From Candidatus Kuenenia stuttgartensis (GTDB lineage Bacteria > Planctomycetota > Brocadiia > Brocadiales > Brocadiaceae): 32,000 nt of DNA. Shown piece by piece: positions 3,274 to 29,132 of the stretch; the stretch's first letter is position 1; each line of letters opens with the position of its first letter. The position numbers and the translations under genes were made by a program. Under the pieces are notes generated by a model. It was given only the letters and a program-made list of their open reading frames with translations. It did not search any database and was not told the origin of the DNA. The stretch covers positions 60,001 through 92,000 of the forward strand of contig NZ_LT934425.1 of assembly GCF_900232105.1 (NCBI RefSeq). The letters are read 5' to 3'.

Positions 3274-4647
3274 ATGGAAGATTCTCTTTCAACAATAGAC
3301 GACATTGACTCTTTAAAAACCTTCGTCAGAAAAAAATATTACTATCTTGGGCAAAACAAGCAACAAGAGATATCCCGCCTTATCTTTGAGATTGCAAAAC
3401 GTGAAAAGGTTGGATTTTCACTTGTTTTTGAACAGATTCCCCCACCGCCAAGCCGTTTCTCTTTCATTAAAAGTTATTTGCTGGAACGGCGTTATCCTTT
3501 GCTTCACCAAAATGGGGTCAAAATAAGCCAGACTTTTTGCGACGTCGATATAAATCCCTCCTTAAGGGTTAATCTCACTACGAAACAAATCATCACGCCG
3601 AAACAGTTTTTTGTAGAAGAATCCGTTTTGTCTACCGAAACCGTTCAGCGAATACGCGACAAATTCCCCAACAGTACTTTTACCATGATAGCGTCCTACC
3701 GTGAATACGTGAAGAAGAAAGCATTTACTATTGCCGATTACAACAGAAGGCTGGAAAATTTCTTTATTATACGCGAAAAATTTGACTTTTATAAACACTG
3801 TCCATGTTCAAACAACTCCGCATCGTGCGGATATTTTGTAATGAATTTAGGGAGCGGATGCCCATATGAATGCACCTATTGCTTTCTTCAAAACTATATT
3901 AACTCGCCTGGGATTGTGCTACCGGCAAATATAGAGGATTTTTTCACCGTCTTCAGGAATTTAAAAAAAGACATGCGCCTCGGATCAGGAGAATTAACCG
4001 ATTCCCTTGCATTCGACCACATTACGGAGTATTCGCCTAAAATCGTGAATTTCTTCCGGCAATATCCCAAAAGCACTTTCGAGTTCAAAACAAAAAGCAA
4101 CAATGTGCGCTTGCTCACTTCAGCACCCGGAGCAAAGAATATTATCATTTCATGGTCATTGAATCCGCAAAAGTTGATCGACACCGCAGAGTATTTTACC
4201 GCTTCCCTGGAGGAAAGGTTAGAAGCAGCGCAAGCATGCACAGCGGCGGGATATCGTGTTGCTTTCCACTTTGATCCGATTATCTGCTATAGTGGATGGG
4301 AGACAGATTATGAAGTATTAATCAATACCGTCTTTACCAAAATTGAATCAAACACTATCGCGTGGCTGAGTTTAGGAACATTGCGCATATCGCCTCAATT
4401 AAAAAAAATCATTGAAAACCGGTTTCCCGAAAATGCCCTGCTTGACGAAGAATTATTAACCGGTTTCGACGGAAAATTGAGGTATCCGGCAGAGATAAGA
4501 TCATTTATATACACCACTATGAACTCATGGATACGGAAAAACAACAAAAGTGTTCCCGTTTATTTATGCATGGAGGAAAGAGAAATGCATAGAGACACAC
4601 ATCTCTCCCTTAAACATGAAACAAAACAGACAACGGTAATTTTTTAA
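3274..4647 (+). CDS. Radical SAM protein, spore-photoproduct-lyase-like (SplB/COG1533-type) with a long N-terminal extension
   Basis: 457 aa. CPYECTYC (CxxxCxxC) cluster motif preceded by FVMNLGSGC and followed by FLQNY. The downstream layout (GELTDSLAFD, SWSLNP, FHFDPII) resembles DNA-repair photolyase-type radical SAM enzymes. About 170 N-terminal residues have no recognisable family. Confidence 0.6.
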   Translation: MEDSLSTIDDIDSLKTFVRKKYYYLGQNKQQEISRLIFEIAKREKVGFSLVFEQIPPPPSRFSFIKSYLLERRYPLLHQNGVKISQTFCDVDINPSLRVNLTTKQIITPKQFFVEESVLSTETVQRIRDKFPNSTFTMIASYREYVKKKAFTIADYNRRLENFFIIREKFDFYKHCPCSNNSASCGYFVMNLGSGCPYECTYCFLQNYINSPGIVLPANIEDFFTVFRNLKKDMRLGSGELTDSLAFDHITEYSPKIVNFFRQYPKSTFEFKTKSNNVRLLTSAPGAKNIIISWSLNPQKLIDTAEYFTASLEERLEAAQACTAAGYRVAFHFDPIICYSGWETDYEVLINTVFTKIESNTIAWLSLGTLRISPQLKKIIENRFPENALLDEELLTGFDGKLRYPAEIRSFIYTTMNSWIRKNNKSVPVYLCMEEREMHRDTHLSLKHETKQTTVIF

Positions 4648-4812
4648 AAGAGGGGATGATACATTTCGTGCCAGGGGAAAACCACCGTGAATGGATCTTG
4701 AGGCATTCAGATATTTATGTGCAGATAAGATTACAATGAGTGGAAAACTATTCTGTAATGTGTATTATTATCGGTGCAAAACTTTGTTTAACAGAAGATA
4801 ATATGCAGGCAA

Positions 4813-5900
4813 TCAAGAGGTTTCGACCCGGTTTCTCCCGTTTTTCCTGGATTTGTATAGTGCATCATCTACGGCATTTACCAAGGTTTCTCAGGTTCCA
4901 TATTGCGGAAAAGACGCAATATACTTACGGTCAGTCGATACGTTTGTCCGTAAACAATCGTGCCAAAACAGGTAACTTCAATTGATTTACGAATTCCTTC
5001 TGCTTTTTCTTTTGCCTGCGATACATCTGCTCCCGGCATTATAATTACAAATTCTTAACCACCATATCGTGCCAATACATCTGAAGTTCTTAAAGAATTA
5101 TTTAATATCTTAGAAACTTCCTACAATACCCGGTCGCCAGCCGTATGACCATACGTATCATTAATACTCTTAAAGTGCCATATCCAAAAGAAGCAAACAT
5201 ACAGACTCATAGCGCCTTTTCGTTAAAGCCAATTGTTTTTTCAACATTTCATCAAAGAATCTTATGTACTGAAACCGTAGCTATTCAGCGTAATTTATTA
5301 AACTACCTGAGATCAGAGCACAACTCGTTCCCAAACAGATACTTCACTGTTTTCAATATTCCACTCACAACTGCTTAATTGAGCAATCTTCTGGGCATGG
5401 GCAAGCGTATTCTTGCTTTTACGCCACTCTTCTTACATAAATTTTCGTTCAGTAATATCTGTTATTGCCGCTATATAGACGCTGCTTTCCTCTCTTTTCC
5501 CGACATCAGAAAAAAACAGGGGAATTCCTATGCACAATACCCACGTAATCTTCACATAAGGATAAATAAGGCGAAATTCCGATTTAAATGTTTTCTTGTT
5601 CTTTACTGCATCTGCCCATTCTTTACAATACGCGTGTGAGGTTAATCCCCCCCATGCAGTACGCCCATCCATCCGTTTCCCAGAGATTCATCCGTGGTAA
5701 GCCCTGTAATCTTGCACCATTGTTCATTGACAAATAGAAAATTCCATTCAAAATCAGTATAAAAAATTCCAACCGGCAGAATATTTGTTATTGTGCGAAA
5801 ACGTCTTTCGCTTTCACTGAGTAATTCATTCTTTTGCTTGCACTAAATCAACAAGGATTTCAGTTTATTGATATCCGGGGACAAAGATTCAACATTCTCC
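4813..5900 (-). pseudogene. Decayed PAS-(PAS)-GGDEF diguanylate cyclase gene
   Basis: Minus-strand reading gives ...KEWADAVKNKKTFKSEFRLIYP..ITWV...AAITDITERK (PAS). It then gives RFFDEMLKKQLALTKRRYESVCLLLLD / [50 protein letters not shown]...SFPQYGT*ETLVNAVDDALYKSRKNGRNRVETS*. The GGEEF signature carries an in-frame TAA, and there are further TAG/TGA/TAA stops. Frameshifts are present, one at a C7 run (5647-5653). The second PAS domain is largely missing. Confidence 0.8.
5281..5348. repeat. Dispersed repeat, copy 1 (inside the GGDEF pseudogene)
   Basis: ctattcagcgtaatttattaaactacc (5281-5307) and gagatcagagcacaactcgttcccaaa (5309-5335) recur exactly at 6814-6840 and 6844-6870. cagatacttcact (5336-5348) is the reverse complement of 6888-6900. 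Confidence 0.8.
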
Positions 5901-6068
5901 ATCAAACTGTTTTTTTTTATAAGATGCACTCATTTTTTCCCACCGGACGCAAGTAAACTTCCCACAGCAACGCAAATAATTTCCATGACCATCTGGAAAC
6001 ATTCGCGATGTAAAGGAATACGCACTTCCTGTTTTATTAATGATTATTAAGACCTGATTAATAGAAGA

Positions 6069-6539
6069 TTACATTAAGTGTAAAACAATATATTGATCAC
6101 CATATTTTTCAATATTGTTTACCATTGTTTGTAAATTACTTAAATGTTCTTCTTCCGACTTGAGAATTTCTTCTAAAAGCATTCTGCTTCCATGGTCTTT
6201 TTCGTTAAAACATATTGTTATGCCTTCATTTAATCTTGCAATAGCTTCAACTTCAATATCTCTATTAAGTTTTAACATTTTAACAATATCAAACTGTTTT
6301 TCTTCAGGCAAGGCATGTTTTTGGTTTTTAACTATTTCCCCTAAAAACAATATGCGCCCCGCTAACATTTCAGCATGCTTCATTTCATCTATTGCGTCTT
6401 TTTTAAGCATTTCTGCAAGTTTATTTAGACCCAAATCTTCACACTTTGTATGCTGATCCATATATATGCCTATAGCGCCTATCTCTGCTGTATATACCTC
6501 ACACAACATTTTGTAAACTTTTTCATTCACACTACCCAT
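6069..6539 (-). CDS. bfr: Bacterioferritin / ferritin-like di-iron protein
   Basis: 156 aa. The di-iron and heme-ligand region AIDEMKHAEMLAGRILFLGE matches the bacterioferritin IDEMKHAD..RILFLEG block. A further EE..H motif (SEEEHLSNL) is present. GGAGGA Shine-Dalgarno sequence upstream. Confidence 0.8.
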   Translation of the reverse strand: MGSVNEKVYKMLCEVYTAEIGAIGIYMDQHTKCEDLGLNKLAEMLKKDAIDEMKHAEMLAGRILFLGEIVKNQKHALPEEKQFDIVKMLKLNRDIEVEAIARLNEGITICFNEKDHGSRMLLEEILKSEEEHLSNLQTMVNNIEKYGDQYIVLHLM

Positions 6540-6613
6540 TTTATCCTCCTTTTAATCTCTGGTTTTATTATATAATTCACTTTCTGTTTGTTCTACATTT
6601 CTAACTAGCATTT

Positions 6614-6813
6614 TTATTGAGCAGTATAACCACCATCAATAACCAATTCACTTCCGGTAACAAATTTTGATTAATCCGACACCAGGTAAAGAATTCCATA
6701 TGCAATATCCAGTGGTTCGCCAATATGTACTTATTGGATGTAAACTGTCAAGATGTTCTCTAAAACCGTGTGTTTCTTTACCTGACGCGTCTACTAATGG
6801 TGTCTAAATGTAA
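6614..6813 (-). pseudogene. C-terminal fragment of a short-chain dehydrogenase/reductase
   Basis: Minus strand reads ..TPLVDASGKETHGFREHLDSLHPISTY / GEPLDIAYGILYLVSD*SKFVTGSELVIDGGYTAQ*. This is a typical SDR C-terminus with one frameshift and one in-frame TAA. The N-terminal two thirds are absent, and the fragment ends at the repeat at 6814. Confidence 0.65.
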
Positions 6814-6922
6814 CTATTCAGCGTAATTTATTAAACTACCGGGGAGATCAGAGCACAACTCGTTCCCAAAAACCTTGTACTGAACATAGTGAAGTATCTG
6901 TTTGAGAACGAGCCGTGTATCG
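6814..6922. repeat. Dispersed repeat, copy 2, arranged as an imperfect foldback
   Basis: Same two 27-mers as copy 1. The arm 6846-6870 (gatcagagcacaactcgttcccaaa) is also imperfectly complementary to 6901-6922 (tttgagaacgagccgtgtatcg), with a 30-nt spacer. Confidence 0.75.
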
Positions 6923-6952
6923 TTTAAGCTGAGTAATTATCTTTTATTTGTA

Positions 6953-8668
6953 CCTAAATCCTGCAAACGATTTTCGCAATGCGAAAATCAGTATTTTCCA
7001 CTACCAAGATTGGCAAAAAGCGATAACAGATATCCGTTTTTTAGCAATTGTGGTAGCGCTATTGTACTACTTTAAACAAAAAGACATGGGAAATTGTCGG
7101 AAACGTGCTCTCTGATGCAATGAAAATCAAGATAGGGATGTACTGTCTCCATCTGCGGTATACTTACCACTCTCAAAAGACTAAAAAAACGAAATACAAC
7201 GTCGGTTTTCTACTGAAAAACTACATCCAGTGACATGCGTTCCCACTTTTCCCATTCCTCCTGATGGAGAAATTTCTCCGGCAATTTTAATGTCATCTGC
7301 CGGCTTCTCTCCACCAGTTTCCCTGCCACACGGATTAACCACAGTCTCATCGTCTTTACTTCCCACTGTTGTATCACTCCACCACTGAGCAATCCCATCC
7401 ACTTCAAAAGATTATACGCTAACACCGCACACTGAAATAGCGCAGCATTGGCCAAAAATTCACCCGTACGTATGTGCCCCGCATTCATCTGTCCTTTACT
7501 CTCTTCTATCAAAGTCTCGCAGGTAGCCCTCTTTCCATAACAACGATGCGCTTCCATCGGACTTAACCGCTCCGTTGTAACGTAACAAAAATACTCATAC
7601 ACGGACACTTCTACTAATTTCTTTTCTCTTTTGACCAATTGCCGCACTGCCACAAAACGTCTCGCACGATCCCACCCTGCACATCGATACCAAAATTCAG
7701 CCTGTTCCCATCCTGGCTCCCCTTTCACCTCATTCCATTTCTGCCCTTCAAGCAATCCTTCCAGATTCTTCAGCTTTACCTTAATCAGATATCCCGCCAA
7801 TATTGACTCAAGGTATTCAAGTAATTCTCCGGTAAAAAAACCGCTGTCTCCCCGAAATACCACCCTTACCCCCTTATTCATGTACGCCATACATTCCTTC
7901 ATGAACTCTACTACTCCGTTACTCGTGTAGGCGCTTCCACAGCGGAACCAACTATGTAATACCTCCTTTGTTTCTGCAATAAATGCCATTAAGGGATGAT
8001 ACGCCTTCTGCCCCTTCTTGTGCGGATTATATCCTACCTCTGCACCCTCCTGTTTCCCATATACACCATCTACGGTAGAATCAACATCTATCCATACTTC
8101 GCAAAGAGCACTCCTGAGTTTATGGCCTGATCTCACCGCACGCTTCCATATCTTTCCCCTAAACCGGTGGATCACCCCCGTCAGTTCCACTATATCTCCC
8201 TGACTCGCCAGCTTCATAATACGTCCTATCGTAGTATCTACAGGTACCTCTTTCCACCCGGACATCTTCTTCAATACCTCATCTGTACACACCTTCATCA
8301 CCTCTACCATCGATGTCGCCCCTGCTATCAACCCTATCACTACCATTTGTACCGCATCGACAAACTGATACCGGGCATTTGCTCCACGATCCTTATGGAC
8401 CGCTTCATGGACTCTCTCCCGGAACATCAGCTTACCCATAAAATTCAATACCGGTAAAAGCCCTGCATGTACCGTTAAGCCTTTCCCGCTCATCTCTGCC
8501 TTGATTTTCGGTTGTCTTTTGCTGTATTTTTTTGCTATATTCTTCATCGAAATGGTGAATCTCCTTTCAGGTGTTTTTTGTTATCAATATACCGCCGAAT
8601 ACCTTGGAAATCCTACCATTTCAATCCTATTCCTGCAACAAGGCTTTGCCTTGTTTGCAGGATTTAGG
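6953..8668 (-). mobile_element. Intact IS1380-family insertion sequence (1716 bp)
   Basis: 16-bp perfect terminal inverted repeats: CCTAAATCCTGCAAAC at 6953-6968 and its reverse complement at 8653-8668. Flanking direct repeat TTGTA (6948-6952 and 8669-8673). Single 445-aa transposase ORF. Confidence 0.85.
7210..8547 (-). CDS. IS1380-family DDE transposase
   Basis: 445 aa. The N-terminal ...GLTVHAGLLPVLNFMGKL.., central WIDVDSTV..YGKQEGAEVGYNPHKKG..YHPL, and FRGDSGFF layout are typical of IS1380/DDE_Tnp_1-type transposases. The ORF is full length. Confidence 0.8.
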   Translation of the reverse strand: MKNIAKKYSKRQPKIKAEMSGKGLTVHAGLLPVLNFMGKLMFRERVHEAVHKDRGANARYQFVDAVQMVVIGLIAGATSMVEVMKVCTDEVLKKMSGWKEVPVDTTIGRIMKLASQGDIVELTGVIHRFRGKIWKRAVRSGHKLRSALCEVWIDVDSTVDGVYGKQEGAEVGYNPHKKGQKAYHPLMAFIAETKEVLHSWFRCGSAYTSNGVVEFMKECMAYMNKGVRVVFRGDSGFFTGELLEYLESILAGYLIKVKLKNLEGLLEGQKWNEVKGEPGWEQAEFWYRCAGWDRARRFVAVRQLVKREKKLVEVSVYEYFCYVTTERLSPMEAHRCYGKRATCETLIEESKGQMNAGHIRTGEFLANAALFQCAVLAYNLLKWMGLLSGGVIQQWEVKTMRLWLIRVAGKLVERSRQMTLKLPEKFLHQEEWEKWERMSLDVVFQ

Positions 8669-9086
8669 TTGTATATTATTTCAATTACGTTGGATACTTT
8701 AATTTACTAAACCTAAAAACTTAAGTATTGCCAGATAATATTGTAAAAATTATTTAAACACCAACTTAACAAAATATATAATAATTAACTTTGAAAATCA
8801 AAATATTTTTATGTAATAATTATTGTTAATACACAATATCTAAAAATGTTTTTAAAAGAAAAAATCATGATGATCCCAAAAAACGTATTGGCGATAGGAA
8901 ATGACCTCTTTTAAGGAAGATTGGAGGGTGGATCATAAAAAACGAAAGGAATCGGGCAGTTGGGATGTATATGTTATAGCACGGAAAATCGTTGTAGCCA
9001 CGCTTTACCAATTAGACCTATGAAATAAGTTCTATTAAAAACCTTGTATATTGTACCTGTACCAAATCTTATCTTTAACATCTAAA

Positions 9087-21369: not shown

Positions 21370-23473
21370 TTAATCCAACTTCGACAAGCAGAAATCGTAT
21401 CTCTTTTATTGCCAATGTGATACGACTTTAGTCCTTCATTTTTCGGCACTACATCTTTGAGTTTTCATGGGTGATTTTATATTTTTTCTGCCTAATGGTG
21501 TATGTTTAATTTGTAGTTTATTGTAAATCGTGTGCTGCTTTTCCGTGGGCGCTGTGCAGGTTCTGACGTCAATAACGCAGCCGTCCTTTGTGTTCATGGT
21601 CGTTGTTACCCTTATATGGGTGGCAAGGATATTACGAATCGTATTCCAATTATAATGAACCCCTGCGGTTCTTAGCTTTTTTAATATCCCGGCAAGTATG
21701 TGATAGGCCAATACAGTGACATGCACGTGGGCAATGGTTGGGGTATCTGTGTGGTGAAAGTTTGGCCGTAAACCAAGGTTGCCTTTCATTGTTTTAAAAC
21801 TTTCCTCAACAGTACTCAACGACCTATGGAGCTTTGATATCTCTTCCCCGCTAAGATCAAGTCGGTTTGTCCGTAATACATACGTGCCTATGGCTTCTTC
21901 CTTTGCTTGCGCCTGAGCATTTTTCTTAAATTTGATATCGGTCGCTTTGCCATCCGTCTGTTCCACTTTGATCGTATATAAATTGCCCACCTTGTAGCGT
22001 TCTTTTAACCGGCCTATCCTCTCTATGATCGTATCATATTTTTTCTGTCTTTTTGGCTTCTCTAATCCTTCTTTTATTGCCGAGAGCGCCTCTTCAAACC
22101 TTTGTTCTTTCAGGGAAAGGATGGACTTCTCTTTTGACTCTTTTGCCTCTTTTGCCTCGCTGTGGCATAAAAGGAATGCCTCTTCTTCAGTACGGACTAA
22201 TTTCATGCCCAACGTTGTTTTCCCGTCTGATAACATAATCTTCTCTTCGTCCGTTTCAGGCCAAAAAGTATCTTCAAAAGATTTCTTGCGCGAGACGACC
22301 ACATATTTATAGCCACTCTTCCTGATAAGCGCAATGTTCTCTTCCGTTGCTATCCCTGCGTCCATAACTATCGTTCTATCATTTGAAAACATACCGTCTT
22401 CTTTTTTTAATCCATCCAAAATATCTTTTAGGGTACCAGGCTCCGACACATTGCCCTCAAAAACCTTGCTCTGCTTGGGAAATCCCTCTTCATCAACGGT
22501 AAGGGATAGCGTAATTAACGGACAATCATTACGGCTCTCTTTTGATTTGTAGCGCCGGGCCACCTTACTCCCTCTTTTGCTACCCTCAAAATAGGTATTT
22601 GTTAAATCATATAAAATCACCGTCTCTTTAAGGGAAAATATCTCTCGCGCCCGCTTTGACAACTCTTGCTCTATGGCGGCATGATTCTCCCAAAGCAAGA
22701 CTGCCGCGCGATGCAGCGCTTTATCATACAGTTTAACCCCTGAGTCCAACAGCTCTCCCGCCCCGCTTGTTTCAGAAAGCCATCGCACGGTATCACGCTC
22801 GCTGCCGGGATGAACCATTCTCCCCACAATGAGCATCTTGGAATAGGCAATCTGGTCATCTGTAAAATCAAGCCCTTGCAATATCTTATCAAACCCGTAT
22901 TCATTCATTTGGCTTATGGCCACGTGTTCGGCGCCTACGGTCTTTGCATCATTTGTTATCAGGGAATTAATATTCACGTGCTCGTATTGAGCAGGTTCTT
23001 CCCCTGCTGATTCACCGCCGGTAATACGTTCTTGCGCCCTGTCCAACCGCTCCTGTCTTATCTGGCTGGCATAATGCCTTGCTTTCGCCTCTATTTCAGG
23101 ATCTTGAGGAAACAACGTTTTTTGATTTGCTAAAAATCCTTCAATGCAATTGGCAAGGGTCTTCCACTTCTCCTCGGGCAGACTAAGCTGCCCAAGGTTT
23201 AAGACTATTTGCTGTCTTGGCCCTGAAGGGGTGCGAATGGATTCGATGAGTTGGTGTTGTATGTAGCTCTTCCCGCCATTCACTTTTTTGATCTTTTCAC
23301 GGATAAACACACCGGTATTTTACCATGTAAGCAATGGCGCCGCAAGCATAAACAATAATATTCAGGCACTACATTAAACGCCGAAAGCAACATTCAACCA
23401 TACCAATAGGTTACGACTATTACATGCTCAATTTCTTGCCTTTTTCAGGATAAATTTGTCGAAGTTGGGTTAA
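21370..23473 (-). mobile_element. Intact IS1634-like (IS4 superfamily) insertion sequence, ~2.1 kb
   Basis: Terminal inverted repeats: TTAATCCAACTTCGACAA (21370-21387) versus the reverse complement of TTGTCGAAGTTGGGTTAA (23456-23473). The last 4 bp (TTAA) are ambiguous with the abutting IS1380 fragment. Single full-length transposase ORF. Confidence 0.75.
21436..23310 (-). CDS. IS1634-family transposase
   Basis: 624 aa. The N-terminus MFIREKIKKVNGGKSYIQHQLIESIRTPSGPRQQIVLNLGQL is typical of IS1634-type transposases. Also present are YDLTNTYFEG (first D region), VMDAGIATEENI (second D) and a C-terminal region with ...RPNFHHT.....HV.V..LAY. Confidence 0.8.
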   Translation of the reverse strand: MFIREKIKKVNGGKSYIQHQLIESIRTPSGPRQQIVLNLGQLSLPEEKWKTLANCIEGFLANQKTLFPQDPEIEAKARHYASQIRQERLDRAQERITGGESAGEEPAQYEHVNINSLITNDAKTVGAEHVAISQMNEYGFDKILQGLDFTDDQIAYSKMLIVGRMVHPGSERDTVRWLSETSGAGELLDSGVKLYDKALHRAAVLLWENHAAIEQELSKRAREIFSLKETVILYDLTNTYFEGSKRGSKVARRYKSKESRNDCPLITLSLTVDEEGFPKQSKVFEGNVSEPGTLKDILDGLKKEDGMFSNDRTIVMDAGIATEENIALIRKSGYKYVVVSRKKSFEDTFWPETDEEKIMLSDGKTTLGMKLVRTEEEAFLLCHSEAKEAKESKEKSILSLKEQRFEEALSAIKEGLEKPKRQKKYDTIIERIGRLKERYKVGNLYTIKVEQTDGKATDIKFKKNAQAQAKEEAIGTYVLRTNRLDLSGEEISKLHRSLSTVEESFKTMKGNLGLRPNFHHTDTPTIAHVHVTVLAYHILAGILKKLRTAGVHYNWNTIRNILATHIRVTTTMNTKDGCVIDVRTCTAPTEKQHTIYNKLQIKHTPLGRKNIKSPMKTQRCSAEK

Positions 23474-24268: not shown

Positions 24269-24603
24269 TGCTACGTCTTAGAATAAATGCTCCAAAAATG
24301 CCCAATTAGTCTCAGAATATTTGAGTCTAATACCCAGCAAATGATTTGAAAAATCTTACCCAGCTACCCCGCCTTTTTTTTATCCTGCGTAAGTATTTCA
24401 CTTGATTTTTTGTTCACGTTAAGAAAAATACATCGTTTACCCCGTTAGAAAGAAGTTCCGTCCGTAAGGCGGAGTAAAGCCTCATTAAATAGTTTGGAAG
24501 GGGTTAAAACCACTTCCAAACTTCCTAACGGCGGTTTACTTCCCAGTTCCCCGTTTTCACGAGGACAAGTTTTGTAAGATTTTTCCGGAACATAAAAAAC
24601 TCA

Positions 24604-24678
24604 GGGCAGGAGGACCGAACGTTGGGAAACTTCATCCTCCTGCCCATTTCCCCCCTATACAAAGGAGGCAGTGCGTGA
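24604..24678 (+). promoter_or_regulatory. Leader hairpin and possible coupled 18-codon uORF upstream of the first transposon gene
   Basis: GGGCAGGAGGA (24604-24614) pairs perfectly with TCCTCCTGCCC (24635-24645). The 5' arm contains an SD-like AGGAGGA 7 nt before TTG (24622). That frame (MGNFILLPISPLYKGGSA) stays open to TGA 24676-24678, which overlaps the GTG start (24675) as GTGA. Confidence 0.3.
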
Positions 24679-25313
24679 ATATTATAGAAAAAATCCACAA
24701 GCATGAAAAGCTTATTGCGACAAAACAGAAGCCATGCTTTTGTCCAAAGTGCAAGAGTACCCATGTCAATTTCACCCTTCATGAATGCAGATATCGGTTG
24801 TTTCACGTTATTATCGACTCCCTTGTTCATACGATAGAATCTTTCCTGGGACGTTGGAAATGTTCCTTGTGCAAGAAGACGTTTACTTCCTATCCTGAGT
24901 ATGCGCTCCCTTACAAGCGGTACGTAAAGGATCACTGTCTCTCCTTCAGTCAGGCTTATGTCAAAGATGATACAGAAACCTACCGGAGTGTCTCCTCTGC
25001 CATCGGATATACTACCCGAACACAGGAAATAGACAACCGCATGCTTGCCTGGTCAACCGTTTGGAGGTGGCTGCGTTTCTTTGGCTCACTGAAATACACA
25101 CTCCGCAACGCCTTTGACCTCATCAGGCAGGCCGACCCCAACTCTCCGGTTTTTCGCCAAATGTTTCCCATTTACCACGGAAAGTATAAAAGCAAACAAC
25201 GAAAAACCTCCCTCGATCAATCGATTCAATTGTTCAGCGCCGAGCCGGAATATCACCGAATTTTTGGGCATTCATTTTTCCCCGAACTGGCAACAAAAAG
25301 CGGCTGGTCTTGA
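24675..25313 (+). CDS. Transposon-encoded zinc-ribbon protein (two CxxC pairs), function unknown
   Basis: 212 aa, GTG start 6 nt after AGGAGG. Contains CFCPKCKS...HEC and CSLCKK, and the C-terminal half is Trp/Arg-rich (WSTVWRWLRFF). It is the first gene of the transposon operon. Confidence 0.6.
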   Translation: MNIIEKIHKHEKLIATKQKPCFCPKCKSTHVNFTLHECRYRLFHVIIDSLVHTIESFLGRWKCSLCKKTFTSYPEYALPYKRYVKDHCLSFSQAYVKDDTETYRSVSSAIGYTTRTQEIDNRMLAWSTVWRWLRFFGSLKYTLRNAFDLIRQADPNSPVFRQMFPIYHGKYKSKQRKTSLDQSIQLFSAEPEYHRIFGHSFFPELATKSGWS

Positions 25314-25351
25314 GTTACAATCACCTCCACACTTAAAAAAGGAGGTGAATT

Positions 25352-26912
25352 ATGAAATCGAAAGACGAAAAATGGGCTTTATTCTGGTGCAATCTTCTGC
25401 ATCCTGTCATCTTCGGTGAGATTGAGAAGGAGCAGACCAACCTTTTTCTGAAAAAACTCTGCCTTCAGGAGGTCGTATTCCCCAACGGAAAGCGGAAAAG
25501 ACCCACTATCTCTACCCTCAGGAGAAAACTCAACCGCTACCGCAAAGATGGATTTCAATCTCTTGCAAGAAAGGCGAGGAGCGACCGTGGCGCATCCAGA
25601 AGGTTTTCTCCTGAAATTATCGACAAAGCCGTTGAACTCAAAAAAGAACAACCACGCCGCAGCGACGATTGCCTCAACCGCTTTCTTGAGAAATACTATG
25701 GGAAAACGATCCCCAAATCCACCCTCTACCGCCATCTCAGACTCGCAGGGGCGACCCGGCTCAAACTCGGCGTCTCACAGCAAAAGGTGCGTATACGCTC
25801 TTAGCCGTGAGCATACCCACGACCTCTGGATTGGCGACTTCCAGGAAGGCCCTTTCGTGCTCGTTGACGGCGAGGCGCTTCCCACAAACCTCTGTCTCTT
25901 TATCGACTGCTACAGCCGTTATGTGGTCGAAGGACGGTATTATCTCAAACAAACCCTCGATATCCTTATCGATTCTCTCATCAGGGCCTGGACTATCCAC
26001 GGCTCGCCCAAAGAACTCTACCTCGACAATGCCAAGGTCTACCACTCTGACGCCCTGCGCTCTGCCTGTTACAACCTCGGCATTAAACTCATCCACAGAC
26101 CACCACGCGACCCTGCTCCCGGCGGACTGGTCGAACGTTTCTTCGGCACCAGCCAGACACAGTTCGAGTCGGAAGTCCGCTCCGGCGACATTATCACCCT
26201 TGATGCCATTAACCAGGCCTTCTCCGCTTACCTTGCCGTTGTCTATCACGCAAGAATCCACTCCGAAACCAATCAATCTCCAAAACAACGCTACGACGAG
26301 GGGCTTACCGTCATCCGACACGTCGATATGGACGCCGCTCTTGCCTTCTTCATGAAACGCATCCCCAGAACCGTTGACAGAACCTTTGCCGATGTCCGCA
26401 TTGATAACCGCTTTTACCGTGTTGACCCCAAACTCAGAGGCGATAAAGTAGAAGTCCGTTACGACCCATACGGCGATCTCAAAAAGGTCTTGATCTATTC
26501 CGCAAACGGTGAATACCTCGGCTCGGGAAATCTCTACCTGCGCGACCAGGGCGCTGAAACTCCAGCCGCCTCACCTTCAAAACCAAAACATAATTACCTC
26601 GACCTTATCACTCAGAAACACAAATCCATTCTCCAGGCTCAGGCCAAAGGCATTGATTACCACCAAATCATCTCCGAACGACCCTGGCCATTCATGGCAT
26701 TCGTCCAGAAACTCGCACTCCTCATGGGACACAAAGGCTCTCTCTCCGCCTTCAGCTCTCATGAACTCGAATCGCTTAAAAAATGCTACAACCGTATCCC
26801 CGCTCTCAACGAATCATTGCTCACGGAGGCATTCCAAAATGCCTCCGTGAAAACCTTACCCTATATCATTCGTGAATTACAAATCGCTTACTCGAAAAAG
26901 GAGGTCTCTTAA
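25352..26912 (+). CDS. Mu/TnsB/TniA-type DDE (rve) transposase, interrupted by a +1 frame change (ORFs 25352-25804 and 25548-26912)
   Basis: The N-terminal HTH region is ..ISTLRRKLNRYRKDGFQSLARKARSDRGASRRF..LKKEQPRRS..STLYRHL. The catalytic core is HDLWIGDF (D), LYLDNAKVYHS (D), GGLVERFFGT (E). The Mu-transposase-C-like beta-barrel region is RTVDRTFADVRIDNRFYRV...VEVRYDPYGDL. The two halves lie in adjacent frames, with the junction near 25785-25804. Confidence 0.8.
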
Positions 26913-26914
26913 CC

Positions 26915-27706
26915 ATGTTTACTTCTCATTTTTCCATGACTACTCAGCCGTTCTCTGAAAGAATCAACACCAGCCTTATCATGAAAGACGAACGCTTTAC
27001 CCAGGGGCTTGCACGACTCCAATACCTCTTACACTCAGGCTCTATCGCCGTCCTCTACGGACAGACGGGAGTCGGAAAATCCACACTCCTCAAACTCTTC
27101 CTCTCACAAATCCCCCAAAACCTGTTTCTCCCCATCTACCTCCATTTTACCCACCTAAAATCATCCAGCCTTCTCTCCTTAATCGTCTCCCAGCTCGGTG
27201 AAATACCAAAACACACCAAAGACCGGCTCTTCCTCCAAATTATGGATAAATCCTTGCGCTCAAATCTCACTCCCATTATCGTTATCGACGAGGCTCATCT
27301 CCTGAAAACCGACGCCATCACAGACCTCAGACTCCTTGTCAGCTCTCCGCTTGATTCTTCCACTCATCTCAAAATCATCCTCTCGGGACAGGAACACCTC
27401 AAATATATCCTCAAAAGAGACATCCATGCCGACTTCGCACAACGCATCTCGGTACATTACCACATTCATCCCCTTACTAAAACTCAAACCGCTGCATACA
27501 TAGACTTCCATCTGAAATCTTCCGGCGCATCCGATAAAATCTTTGACTCAGACGTCAAAGACCTGATCCATGAGTTCTCCGCCGGCATCCCAAGGCAAAT
27601 CAACGCCATTTCCACCGCCTGCCTGATTAACGCTTCCATCAGACAATCACAGAAAATTACCCAGGATATCTTCCATCAGGCTCTTGCTGAAATTCAATCT
27701 TTTTAA
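26915..27706 (+). CDS. AAA+ ATPase, TniB/MuB/ExeA-like transposition helper
   Basis: 263 aa. Walker A YGQTGVGKSTLLK, Walker B IIVIDEAHLL, and a sensor region ILSGQ. Its position immediately after the DDE transposase matches Tn552 / Tn5053 / Mu. Confidence 0.75.
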   Translation: MFTSHFSMTTQPFSERINTSLIMKDERFTQGLARLQYLLHSGSIAVLYGQTGVGKSTLLKLFLSQIPQNLFLPIYLHFTHLKSSSLLSLIVSQLGEIPKHTKDRLFLQIMDKSLRSNLTPIIVIDEAHLLKTDAITDLRLLVSSPLDSSTHLKIILSGQEHLKYILKRDIHADFAQRISVHYHIHPLTKTQTAAYIDFHLKSSGASDKIFDSDVKDLIHEFSAGIPRQINAISTACLINASIRQSQKITQDIFHQALAEIQSF

Positions 27707-27717
27707 GGAGGTCTACC

Positions 27718-28020
27718 ATGGCCCGTCTCTTTTCCCCTCAACTCTTGCGCTCATTACGAAACGATATCCCCATCGATCGACTCATCGCTGATGTCCTCTC
27801 CATACCTCATAAATACTCCGAAGGCTATTTCCGCTTCCTCTGCCCTCTCTGTTCTGAATTTAATTCCGCCACCAACCCAAATACGAACCTCGCCAGGTGT
27901 TTCCGTTGTAAAAAAAACTTTAATACCATCGACATCGTCATGGTAGATTCCAACTCCTCTTTCCCAGATGCTGTCTATCTGCTAAAATCCGTTTTACCTC
28001 AATATATTAATTCCACTTAA
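27718..28020 (+). CDS. Small primase-type (CHC2-like) zinc-finger protein
   Basis: 100 aa. FRFLCPLCSEFNSATNPNTNLARCFRCKKNFNTIDIVM has the spacing of the DnaG/CHC2 zinc ribbon but with four Cys ligands. It is the last gene before the right transposon end. Confidence 0.55.
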   Translation: MARLFSPQLLRSLRNDIPIDRLIADVLSIPHKYSEGYFRFLCPLCSEFNSATNPNTNLARCFRCKKNFNTIDIVMVDSNSSFPDAVYLLKSVLPQYINST

Positions 28021-28052
28021 TCTGAGAATTCCAGGTTCATTTATTGTGGGGC

Positions 28053-28589
28053 TTAGCATCTTAACTCAAACAGCTTTCGCTCTATCTTTGCCTGATTCTC
28101 TGACAACCATGACAAATTATCGTACAGATTGTTCTCGTCAAACCCACGCTTCATATCCAGGACGTCACCCGCAGCATGTATCTGCGCCAGCCTTACTGCA
28201 GACAGTCTTGACCCCTGGCCTATTACCCTTGCCATTACTTGCCAAAGCGCCAGCTTTCCTTCAAAGTCCTTTCCCAATGCCTCTTCTATCCCTAATTCCT
28301 TTGCCACTTGGTACACGCTCCACGCTGCTCCCACAGACAAACCCTCATGGAGTTTCACCGATTCTGACAATGCGCCCAATGCACAGAGATCGTCTTTATG
28401 TGCGAGTGCAAGTCTTATCGCTTCAATCTCCAGGGGAGTGCAATTCGACAGATTCGCAATGGTACGTTTCTTGACCTTCCCATCCTCACGGTACGATTCC
28501 CGCAGAAGGGTAGATCGATAGATTTTTTTACCGGATTTTGACTTGTTCTCTACAATATGCATGTCCACCATTGTACAGATAACAACCAT
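28053..28589 (-). pseudogene. N-terminal stub (178 codons) of a second, different IS1634-family transposase
   Basis: MHIVENKSKSGKKIYRSTLLRESYREDGKVKKRTIANLS... parallels the N-terminus of the 624-aa transposase at 21436-23310 but is divergent. Reading stops where the transposon right end (28058) abuts, before the first catalytic Asp region. Confidence 0.7.
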
Positions 28590-28769: not shown

Positions 28770-29132
28770 TTAACACCTGCTTTTTATCGCCTCTTTATTC
28801 TCTCTGCGAAATCTCGATATCGTACGGTAATCAGGTTTTATACCGGATACTAACCACATGAAGGATAGATTATGATAGCACGCCCTTTCCAGTCTGCGGG
28901 AACTCCTTTCCCCATAGGCATATCCATATACGATTAATTTTAAGAGCGCCCTTGGATGATACTCATGCGCACCGGCTTTATACGCATTGATCTCAAAACC
29001 CATTTCCTGAAGGTCTAAGCTCTCTATAAACGCATCATACGCCCTCACAGGATCTTCTTTTCCCACATAATCTTGTATTACCGGTGGAAAAAGTGTATTT
29101 TGATCTCTATTCCCTATAATATAGCCAAACAA
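28770..29132 (-). pseudogene. N-terminal stub (~120 codons) of an IS1182/IS5-type transposase (DUF772-like N-domain)
   Basis: ..NRDQNTLFPPVIQDYVGKEDPVRAYDAFIESLDLQEMGF...YHPRALLKLIVYGYAYGERSSRRLERACYHNLSFMWLVSG.KPDYRTISRFRREN matches the conserved N-terminal domain of IS1182-family transposases. The catalytic part is missing. Confidence 0.65.

Follow-up and report, generated by a model that had tools for sequence, protein, structure and literature searches.

We report that positions 24269 to 28058 of a 32,000-nt stretch of Candidatus Kuenenia stuttgartensis DNA (contig NZ_LT934425.1; the whole stretch is hereafter the window, and coordinates are positions within it) are one full-length copy of an insertion sequence (IS)-like four-gene transposon, which belongs to an unnamed family in the Mu/Tn552/Tn7-Tn5053 superfamily. 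The 3,790-bp element lies on the forward strand between TG...CA termini and encodes, in this order, a double-CxxC protein of the DUF6431 family (open reading frame 1, ORF1), a DDE transposase, an AAA+ ATPase and a primase-type zinc protein (ORF4). Its membership in the superfamily is seen in the Mu-type barrel of the DDE transposase, the adjacent ATPase of the MuB/TnsC/TniB type, the TG...CA ends with repeated putative transposase sites, and the short target duplications. The core is of a well-known kind, and the accessory set together with an array of repeats at the left end is undescribed in searchable sources. We assign a probability of roughly 75% to the joint explanation that this is an unnamed transposon of the superfamily, that its accessory proteins have the roles proposed below, and that its frameshifted copy is mobile in trans or by recoding at most.

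Boundaries and gene content of the element

Seven further Kuenenia copies (L070-L076, where L-numbers denote the loci and P-numbers the proteins compared) were located in Ca. Kuenenia stuttgartiensis CP049055.1 and in JASNYJ01 via the exact 100-aa ORF4 protein, which many sites in Kuenenia assemblies encode. In all of them the complete 3,790 bp aligned without gaps at 99.87-99.95% identity; in these copies, as in the window, similarity ceases exactly at 24269 and 28058 and the flanks diverge at once, with the same end bases in all eight. The left end reads TGCTACGTC... and the right end ...GCTTAGCA, and 18 of the 27 terminal bases match as an inverted repeat (chance ~7.5e-5 for a random pair of 27-mers from the window), which bears out the imperfect ~27-bp inverted repeat described in a first-pass annotation of this DNA. 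Additionally, searching 185,579 species genomes with the transposase's catalytic half returned 66 loci, and three genomes contain many identical copies. We compared 10 copies on a Planctomycetota chromosome (element of 4,065 bp), 9 in Desulfoferrobacter suflitae DRH4 (4,321 bp) and 8 in the deltaproteobacterial metagenome-assembled genome (MAG) MFD02416 (3,693 bp). In these three multi-copy genomes the shared block starts with T[G/C]CTA[C/G]GTCC and ends with ...GAC[T/G]TAGCA, and the window termini are the same. Many assemblies hold the element as a stand-alone contig of 3.4-4.4 kb. A discrete transposon with TG...CA ends would have been called into question if the ends were not conserved in other copies; we observed the opposite, both in Kuenenia and in the three other genomes, and the boundaries of the element are therefore confirmed. 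Across the family, the four genes occur in the same order at ~40 loci in more than 20 genomes of several phyla (Planctomycetota, Desulfobacterota and others), and at least 1,500 homologues of the transposase were found.

All genes of the element are on the forward strand, separated by intergenic gaps of 38, 2 and 11 bp, and AAGGAGG stands ahead of every start codon, in agreement with the compact operon that had been noted. The G+C content is 0.474, compared with 0.375 in the window outside its IS cluster, so the earlier statement that the element is more G+C-rich than the host DNA also holds. Pfam agrees with the gene order given by the first-pass annotation, which overlooked that the transposase of this copy is split by a frameshift. 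The ends enclose only four genes, none of which matches the TnsA families; no serine resolvase or recombinase gene was found within 24269-28058 or in related elements, and the reported lack of TnsA, resolvase and cargo is thereby upheld.

The transposase as a whole occupies 25352-26912 (+) and matches HTH_32, rve and Mu-transpos_C in Pfam, the last with 40.1 bits against a cut-off of 21.7. Its N-terminal part (150 aa, HTH_32; 25352..25804, frame 2) ends at a frameshift-made TAG at 25802-25804, and its catalytic part (25803..26912, frame 0) comprises rve, Mu-transpos_C and a C-terminal extension of ~80 aa; the ORF listed for the catalytic part runs from 25548 to 26912 (454 aa). In the numbering of the fused protein the DDE residues are D162 (25836-25838), D225 (26025-26027) and E261 (26133-26135), and all three are invariant in the family alignment. 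Single-sequence searches of the PDB with the four element proteins were uninformative and profiles were needed. A transposase profile from 19 family members found TnsB of the CRISPR-associated transposon (CAST) ShCAST as its best solved-structure match (4e-25), followed by weaker matches to other TnsB chains, retroviral integrases and the IS21 transposase IstA (IS5376, 4e-7), and hhalign gave a probability of 98% against Tn402 TniA (plasmid R751) over the catalytic core and barrel. The AAA+ ATPase (263 aa; 26915..27706, +) matches AAA_22 at 5e-21 and carries a Walker A motif (G49-K55) and a Walker B motif (D125-E126), the residues of which are invariant in the family. The best solved match of its profile is MuB (5e-11, near full length), with ShTnsC at 5e-8 and VchTnsC at 8e-6, and hhalign gave 90% against TniB. 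These homologies agree with the earlier description of the transposase and ATPase as a classical core. When the NCBIfam IS models were examined, the transposase stayed below all cut-offs (IS481 80.7/224, IS3 46/160, IS21 41.5/160 and ISNCY_2 32/250 bits); the best NCBIfam match of the ATPase, an ExeA-like PEP-CTERM-associated ATPase, fell far under its cut-off, and IstB_IS21 was absent among the 14 Pfam matches of the ATPase. With homology to TnsB/TniA and to MuB/TnsC/TniB, and with the named IS models not reached, the element is therefore a member of the superfamily outside its named families.

ORF1 (212 aa; 24675..25313, +) combines a four-cysteine zinc ribbon (C23/C26/C63/C66) with an STVWRW motif. 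PF20020 (DUF6431) was matched by all 24 aligned family members (best E 1.2e-7), the window protein itself scoring 21.4 bits, under the 26.6 cut-off, and the relative L021 scoring 28.9. The four cysteines are invariant in the family, as are T128, V129, W130 and W132 of the STVWRW motif. Distant homologues carry DUF6431 together with HTH_28 or HTH_23 directly after the zinc ribbon, and from its sequence we read STVWRW as the recognition helix of a helix-turn-helix (HTH), like the HTH domains of IS type. A profile search of 1.8 billion representatives returned 587 DUF6431 clusters at 50% identity, all of them small stand-alone proteins, and the ORF1 profile found nothing among PDB sequences. The TniQ of type V-K CASTs is only ~170 aa. 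Because that protein is also small, the argument that the element has no TniQ-sized protein is weak, and we tested TniQ directly against ORF1; the candidate was rejected, with an hhalign probability of 0.2% against Tn402 TniQ and no Pfam TniQ match in the 24 members at E<=1, and ORF1 shows no detectable relationship to TniQ in these sequence comparisons.

ORF4 (100 aa; 27718..28020, +) is a stand-alone zinc-binding domain of the DnaG-primase type (Zn_ribbon_DnaG/CHC2; 26.3 bits on Zn_ribbon_DnaG against a Pfam cut-off of 24.9), and it lacks both the catalytic and the helicase-binding domain of a primase. The family profile matches the zinc-binding domain of Bacillus DnaG (1d0q) end to end, at 6.6e-4 over residues 1-91. 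The AlphaFold2 (AF2) model, with a predicted local distance difference test score (pLDDT) of 92.5, aligns to the same structure in Foldseek with a template-modelling (TM) score of 0.73 and a root-mean-square deviation (rmsd) of 2.3 A. The zinc ligands are of the C4 type (C42, C45, C61 and C64) and not CHC2. We found 961 homologues of ORF4, mostly on element-sized contigs, and it is the best conserved of the four proteins (55-66% identity), compared with 33-44% in ORF1, the least conserved.

A further group of relatives has three genes only, namely DUF6431, a DDE transposase of 426-483 aa and an AAA_22 ATPase in the same order, without the primase-type protein. Their transposases are ~30-35% identical and occur on Cupriavidus, Mycobacterium and Streptomyces plasmids and in Syntrophomonas and Ignavibacteriales genomes, for which RefSeq provides generic names only. 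The ~80-aa C-terminal extension of the transposase is found exclusively in ORF4-bearing elements, whose transposases measure 518-520 aa. In Clostridium sp. JS66 a three-gene cassette is present in 15 copies and has been described as an unexplained repeat mediating deletion (bioRxiv 10.64898/2026.08.16.744336). Apart from this preprint on the three-gene cassette, we found in the literature no named, characterised family with roles for both zinc proteins, and neither the literature nor the NCBIfam IS models yielded a named family that the quartet matches.

Variants with additional genes were also observed. In the D. suflitae element a 202-aa SEC-C and TPR gene lies on the opposite strand between the left end and ORF1 (L021:4233-4841, -); it is a possible passenger and explains most of the length by which this element exceeds the 3.7-kb variants. 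The Planctomycetota element has a 97-aa ORF without a Pfam match between the ATPase gene and ORF4 (L037:7921-8214, +). In the three-gene relative on a Streptomyces chartreusis plasmid, an extra 92-aa ORF is located between transposase and ATPase (L069:5275-5553), and a TnpB-type gene (OrfB_IS605 and Cas12f1-like TNB; L069:6883-8085) follows just downstream. Finally, P0086, a full-length transposase homologue of 61% identity attributed to a Candidatus Methanophagaceae (ANME-1) archaeon, could be a transfer into archaea or a binning error.

Terminal sites, insertion sites and the Kuenenia copies

Next, we examined the cis elements, which at both ends include paired putative transposase sites. 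The left terminal inverted repeat bears the putative site TGCTACGTCTTAGAATAAATGCTC (24269..24292, +; family core T[G/C]CTA[C/A]GTC[C/T]), and the left subterminal site TAGTCTCAGAATATTTGA (24307..24324, +), with an AGTCYCA core, is a direct repeat of the terminal motif (12/18). At the right end (28013..28058, -) the subterminal site occupies 28013-28030, overlapping the ORF4 stop codon, and the terminal site with its inverted repeat occupies 28037-28058. A second site ~25-40 bp inside both ends was also observed in the Planctomycetota, D. suflitae and MFD02416 elements. The left end alone carries, in addition, an array of four A(C/T)CC(C/T/A)GC repeats in one orientation (24332..24388, +; at 24332, 24358, 24366 and 24382). 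Among the elements examined, 10 of the 11 complete ones and three of the four left-end fragments have a cluster of 2-5 such repeats ~30-125 bp inside the left terminus; the repeats often appear as ACCCCGCnnACCCCGC, all have the same orientation, and none were found at right ends. Counting from the repeat tables, they are ~60-fold enriched over the rest of the elements. The motif has remained stable while the proteins diverged to 35-60% identity, which implies a conserved reader; when the three-gene relatives were compared for such a reader, their left ends were too divergent to decide.

The leader of ORF1 measures 407 bp and contains a structured stretch with two strong hairpins (24491..24645, +; hairpins at 24491-24522 and 24604-24645), with a fold z-score of -3.7 relative to shuffles. 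This hairpin stretch is specific to the Kuenenia-type element, and an Rfam scan of the element including the leader gave no match. In the second hairpin GGGCAGGAGGA pairs with UCCUCCUGCCC, a Shine-Dalgarno-like and an anti-Shine-Dalgarno-like segment ~15 nt upstream of the real Shine-Dalgarno sequence, and from this pairing the hairpin may block read-through expression.

Target duplications were identified in 27 of 35 copies from four genomes, with 22 of them being 6 bp, three 7 bp and two 5 bp long; the 5 bp expected earlier for this superfamily is thus replaced by an observed length of usually 6 bp (range 5-7). Upon rebuilding the empty sites, we find insertions in genes for tyrosine integrases, IS1634-like and IS4-like transposases, McrBC, RHS, a P-type ATPase, CorA and a lipoprotein, as well as between genes. 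The target logo from 22 aligned sites is weak, roughly S-N-T-A-S-S, and with this pattern and the diversity of sites the choice of targets must be called loose. Of 16 flanks in Kuenenia, ~12 are inside other IS elements (IS1380, IS110, ISL3 and IS1634). Specific targeting of IS elements was considered and rejected, as mobile-element genes received only ~6 of the 27 insertions in the three other genomes and the sites had no common sequence; the bias in Kuenenia probably reflects selection or survivorship rather than targeting.

The window copy has no target duplication, its left flank ending in ...GATGTG and its right flank beginning with TCTTAA, because flanks have been exchanged between copies. 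A truncated IS1380-family transposase gene forms the left flank (23500 to ~24268, +) and an N-terminal fragment of an IS1634-family gene the right flank (28053-28589, -). Only two of the eight Kuenenia copies have kept a duplication, L072 (CCTGGG, inside an IS110 gene) and L073 (CCGAG), and the remaining six have mismatched flanks. Furthermore, L071 and L074 have their left flank in common, and L076 and the window copy their right flank. CTTCAC occurs both in the left flank of L075 and in the right flank of L070, and these two flanks jointly rebuild one IS110 gene. Such swapped flanks are characteristic of true insertions followed by recombination between copies or by intramolecular replicative events. 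L075 (~1.85 Mb) and L070 (~3.15 Mb) are oppositely oriented in CP049055.1, and the CTTCAC split between them suggests a ~1.3-Mb inversion via recombination between element copies. The IS cluster of the window also contains a full-length IS1634-family gene (624 aa; 21436-23310, -) and a DUF772 (IS5-type) fragment (28770-29132, -), and another complete IS1380 copy is located at ~6938-8670 of the window.

The frameshift lies at TCTTAGC (25799..25805, +), where the ancestral sequence is TGGAGC, and it is common to all eight Kuenenia copies examined. The window and its seven siblings read CGC TCT TAG C, a three-base change with one nucleotide added and a stop at the junction. Relatives have a single-ORF transposase of 518-520 aa with ...KVRKRW(T/S)RDHTHDLW... 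across the junction, and an intact variant at 98.8% identity (L078, a Logan contig from another sample) reads CGC TGG AGC, KVRIRWSREHTH, and encodes the 519-aa P0030. The frameshift is also present in L072 and L073, the two copies with clean duplications, and the frameshifted form has thus been mobilised at least twice, in trans or by read-through. The exact ancestral length is restored if the U in UCU-U-AGC is skipped, which is the sole point found for recoding. Overall, any mobility of the Kuenenia copies examined would depend on action in trans or on low-level +1 recoding at UCU-UAG-C.

Two other interpretations of the frameshift were rejected. Programmed frameshifting as a family trait is contradicted by the single ORF of every relative outside this Kuenenia lineage. 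P0033, an 'intact' 519-aa NCBI transposase that seemed to contain a compensating mutation, stems from the same locus as the window, and we regard it as an assembly artefact, because four indels in homopolymer length separate the window from an older assembly of that locus (L077; GCA_900232175.1, OCTL01000041.1). These single-base indels, at 25193, 25210, 25246 and 25748, scramble part of ORF1 and yield the spurious P0033, and they are probably long-read assembly errors.

Proposed mechanism and alternative explanations

By analogy with the known systems of the superfamily, the transposase would bind the paired end sites, make its 3' cuts at the terminal CA and join the ends to the target with a 6-bp stagger. 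The ATPase, bound to DNA and to ATP, would capture the target with weak sequence preference and pass it to the transposase. The 5' strands would stay attached without TnsA, and with neither TnsA nor a resolvase the primary product would be a Shapiro-type joint that host replication, repair or recombination must resolve, as happens with Mu and the type V-K CASTs. In this proposal ORF1 would bind the left-end ACCCCGC array and act on operon expression, on the left-right asymmetry of the transpososome, or on both. ORF4 would act together with the C-terminal extension of the transposase on single-stranded or fork DNA, either in the target or at the joint made by strand transfer, and as the extension and ORF4 co-occur, they are proposed to interact. 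The zinc proteins may govern target choice or regulation. A bolder version, in which both zinc proteins are obligatory and have no counterpart in Mu, Tn7, Tn5053, Tn552 or IS21, with ORF4 docking on the extended C-terminus of the transposase, reading single-stranded or fork DNA and so coupling strand transfer to replication or to targets at forks, ORF1 reading the array and thereby imposing asymmetry of the ends or autoregulation, and +1 recoding possibly operating in Kuenenia, we hold only tentatively and regard as rather doubtful.

Several observations weigh against the joint explanation. L013 and L016 have no clear array, and the array could equally be a promoter element or be used by the N-terminal domain of the transposase, by ORF4 or by a host factor. 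The structure model of ORF1 is poor (pLDDT 61), and the fold search was uninformative. Replicative and non-replicative transposition are indistinguishable in these data, and bacterial precedents make UCU-UAG-C a poor candidate for slippage. Additionally, in the MFD02416 MAG two copies stand head-to-head ~2.9 kb apart (L005:1-1723 and 4604-8296), and on its contig_6040 the copies L054, L004 and L010 lie ~11-15 kb apart, three copies within ~30 kb; strong target immunity in the style of MuB/TnsC is therefore doubtful, although rearrangements could have brought the close-lying copies together. Finally, the three-gene relatives are multi-copy without ORF4 and by that sign transpose, so that ORF4 is not universally required.

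This last observation also favours a simpler account, in which transposase and ATPase alone perform the chemistry, as in Tn552 or IS21, with ORF1 being the operon repressor and ORF4 a dispensable passenger or regulator. The low conservation of ORF1 points in the same direction, as does the ACCCCGC array, which lies after the end sites and ahead of ORF1 in the expected place of a promoter or operator. ORF4, however, is the most conserved of the proteins and keeps the same position in ~30 independent loci across phyla, unlike passengers, and DUF6431 accompanies the transposase-ATPase pair even at ~30% identity, which suggests a core role; we therefore consider the simpler account unlikely, while giving it appreciable weight. 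Less probable still is that ORF1 is a divergent selector of the TniQ type that recruits the ATPase to chosen sites and ORF4 another selector, for instance of replication forks, resulting in two targeting pathways. A zinc ribbon with an HTH-like motif is found in TniQ and TnsD too, the size of ORF1 is near that of type V-K TniQ, the transposase and ATPase are nearest among solved structures to TnsB and TnsC of ShCAST, and many insertions are in mobile or defence genes. The direct comparison of ORF1 with TniQ nevertheless speaks against it, the 27 duplication-bearing sites lie in unrelated genes and have only a weak bendability-like logo in common, and a bias towards IS and integrase genes is equally expected from selection against harmful insertions.

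It is possible, though we think it less likely than not, that the Kuenenia lineage is dead, its copies being relics spread by duplication or recombination and the window copy debris in an IS graveyard. The same frameshift in all eight copies, the mismatched flanks without target duplication in six of them, and a protein search in which no NCBI Kuenenia record other than that of the artefact P0033 gave a full-length transposase are consistent with this possibility. On the other hand, the copies are nearly identical, the unique sites of L072 and L073 have clean 6-bp and 5-bp duplications around a frameshifted element, the CTTCAC split between L075 and L070 indicates that flank exchange came after true insertions, and the other three genes of the frameshifted copies are intact. 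The four genes could also be part of something larger, for instance a Tn7-like island, a transposable prophage or an IS21-family element, all of which contain rve, Mu-transpos_C and AAA domains. The boundary analysis refutes this view, since 24269 and 28058 mark the limits of similarity in eight copies, as do the equivalent points in 27 relatives, and the stand-alone contigs, the IS21 model below its cut-off, the missing IstB_IS21 match and the absence of phage genes likewise leave it with a negligible probability.

Comparison with known transposition systems

Mu, Tn7, CAST, Tn5053, Tn552 and IS21 are the best-understood models of target choice and the basis of programmable DNA-insertion tools, and the known families add accessories of their own, including TnsA, TniQ/TnsD, TnsE, resolvases and Cas effectors. 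The family described here is abundant in several bacterial phyla, possibly extends to one archaeon, and is small enough for reconstitution. Its two accessory proteins are not known to have been studied in transposition, and a role for DUF6431 would follow from solving theirs. Understanding the primase zinc-binding domain, and the clean simple insertions made without TnsA or a resolvase, would offer a new solution to a well-posed problem. In Kuenenia these elements are responsible for visible rearrangements, and the JS66 preprint reports that in Clostridium they cause deletions (bioRxiv 10.64898/2026.08.16.744336). Furthermore, the defined ends, the 6-bp duplication and the four-gene signature allow the family to be recognised in genome annotation.

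On the basis of descriptions, the element is like Tn552 of S. aureus in having a DDE transposase followed by an ATPase of ~270 aa and in its TG...CA ends. Tn552 encodes the p480 transposase, the p271 ATP-binding protein and the BinL resolvase, and Rowland and co-workers reportedly found two direct-repeat transposase sites per end and target duplications of 6-7 bp. Unlike Tn552, the element is without a resolvase, res site or cargo, its inverted repeat is an 18/27 match compared with ~116 bp, and it has two extra zinc proteins. Relative to Tn5053/Tn402, the transposase is homologous to TniA (98%) and the ATPase to TniB (90%), whereas the element has no TniQ homologue (0.2%), no TniR resolvase and no res-site targeting, and duplicates 6 bp instead of 5 bp.

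In comparison with Tn7 and the type V-K CASTs, the transposase matches TnsB of ShCAST and the ATPase matches both ShTnsC and VchTnsC. As in type V-K there is no TnsA, and from that precedent cointegrate-type products are expected. The element differs from these systems in having no Cas genes, TniQ, attachment-site targeting or cargo, in its 6-bp duplication and in its two sites per end. The likeness to Mu lies in the ATPase, for which MuB is the best solved match (5e-11), and in the Mu-type C-terminal barrel of the transposase; the asymmetric cis element at the left end recalls the Mu enhancer/operator, by analogy only. Unlike Mu, the element is not a phage and produces 6-bp rather than 5-bp duplications, and its copies ~2.9 kb apart make strong target immunity doubtful. 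With IS21 it shares the IS-like size, the combination of a DDE transposase with an AAA+ helper, and multiple terminal repeats, and it is set apart by the NCBIfam IS21 score below the cut-off, an ATPase without an IstB_IS21 match and two extra genes. The DUF6431-DDE-AAA three-gene cassettes, including that of Clostridium sp. JS66, have the first three genes in the same order, and only the four-gene elements add a zinc protein of the primase type and lengthen the transposase by ~80 aa at its C-terminus.

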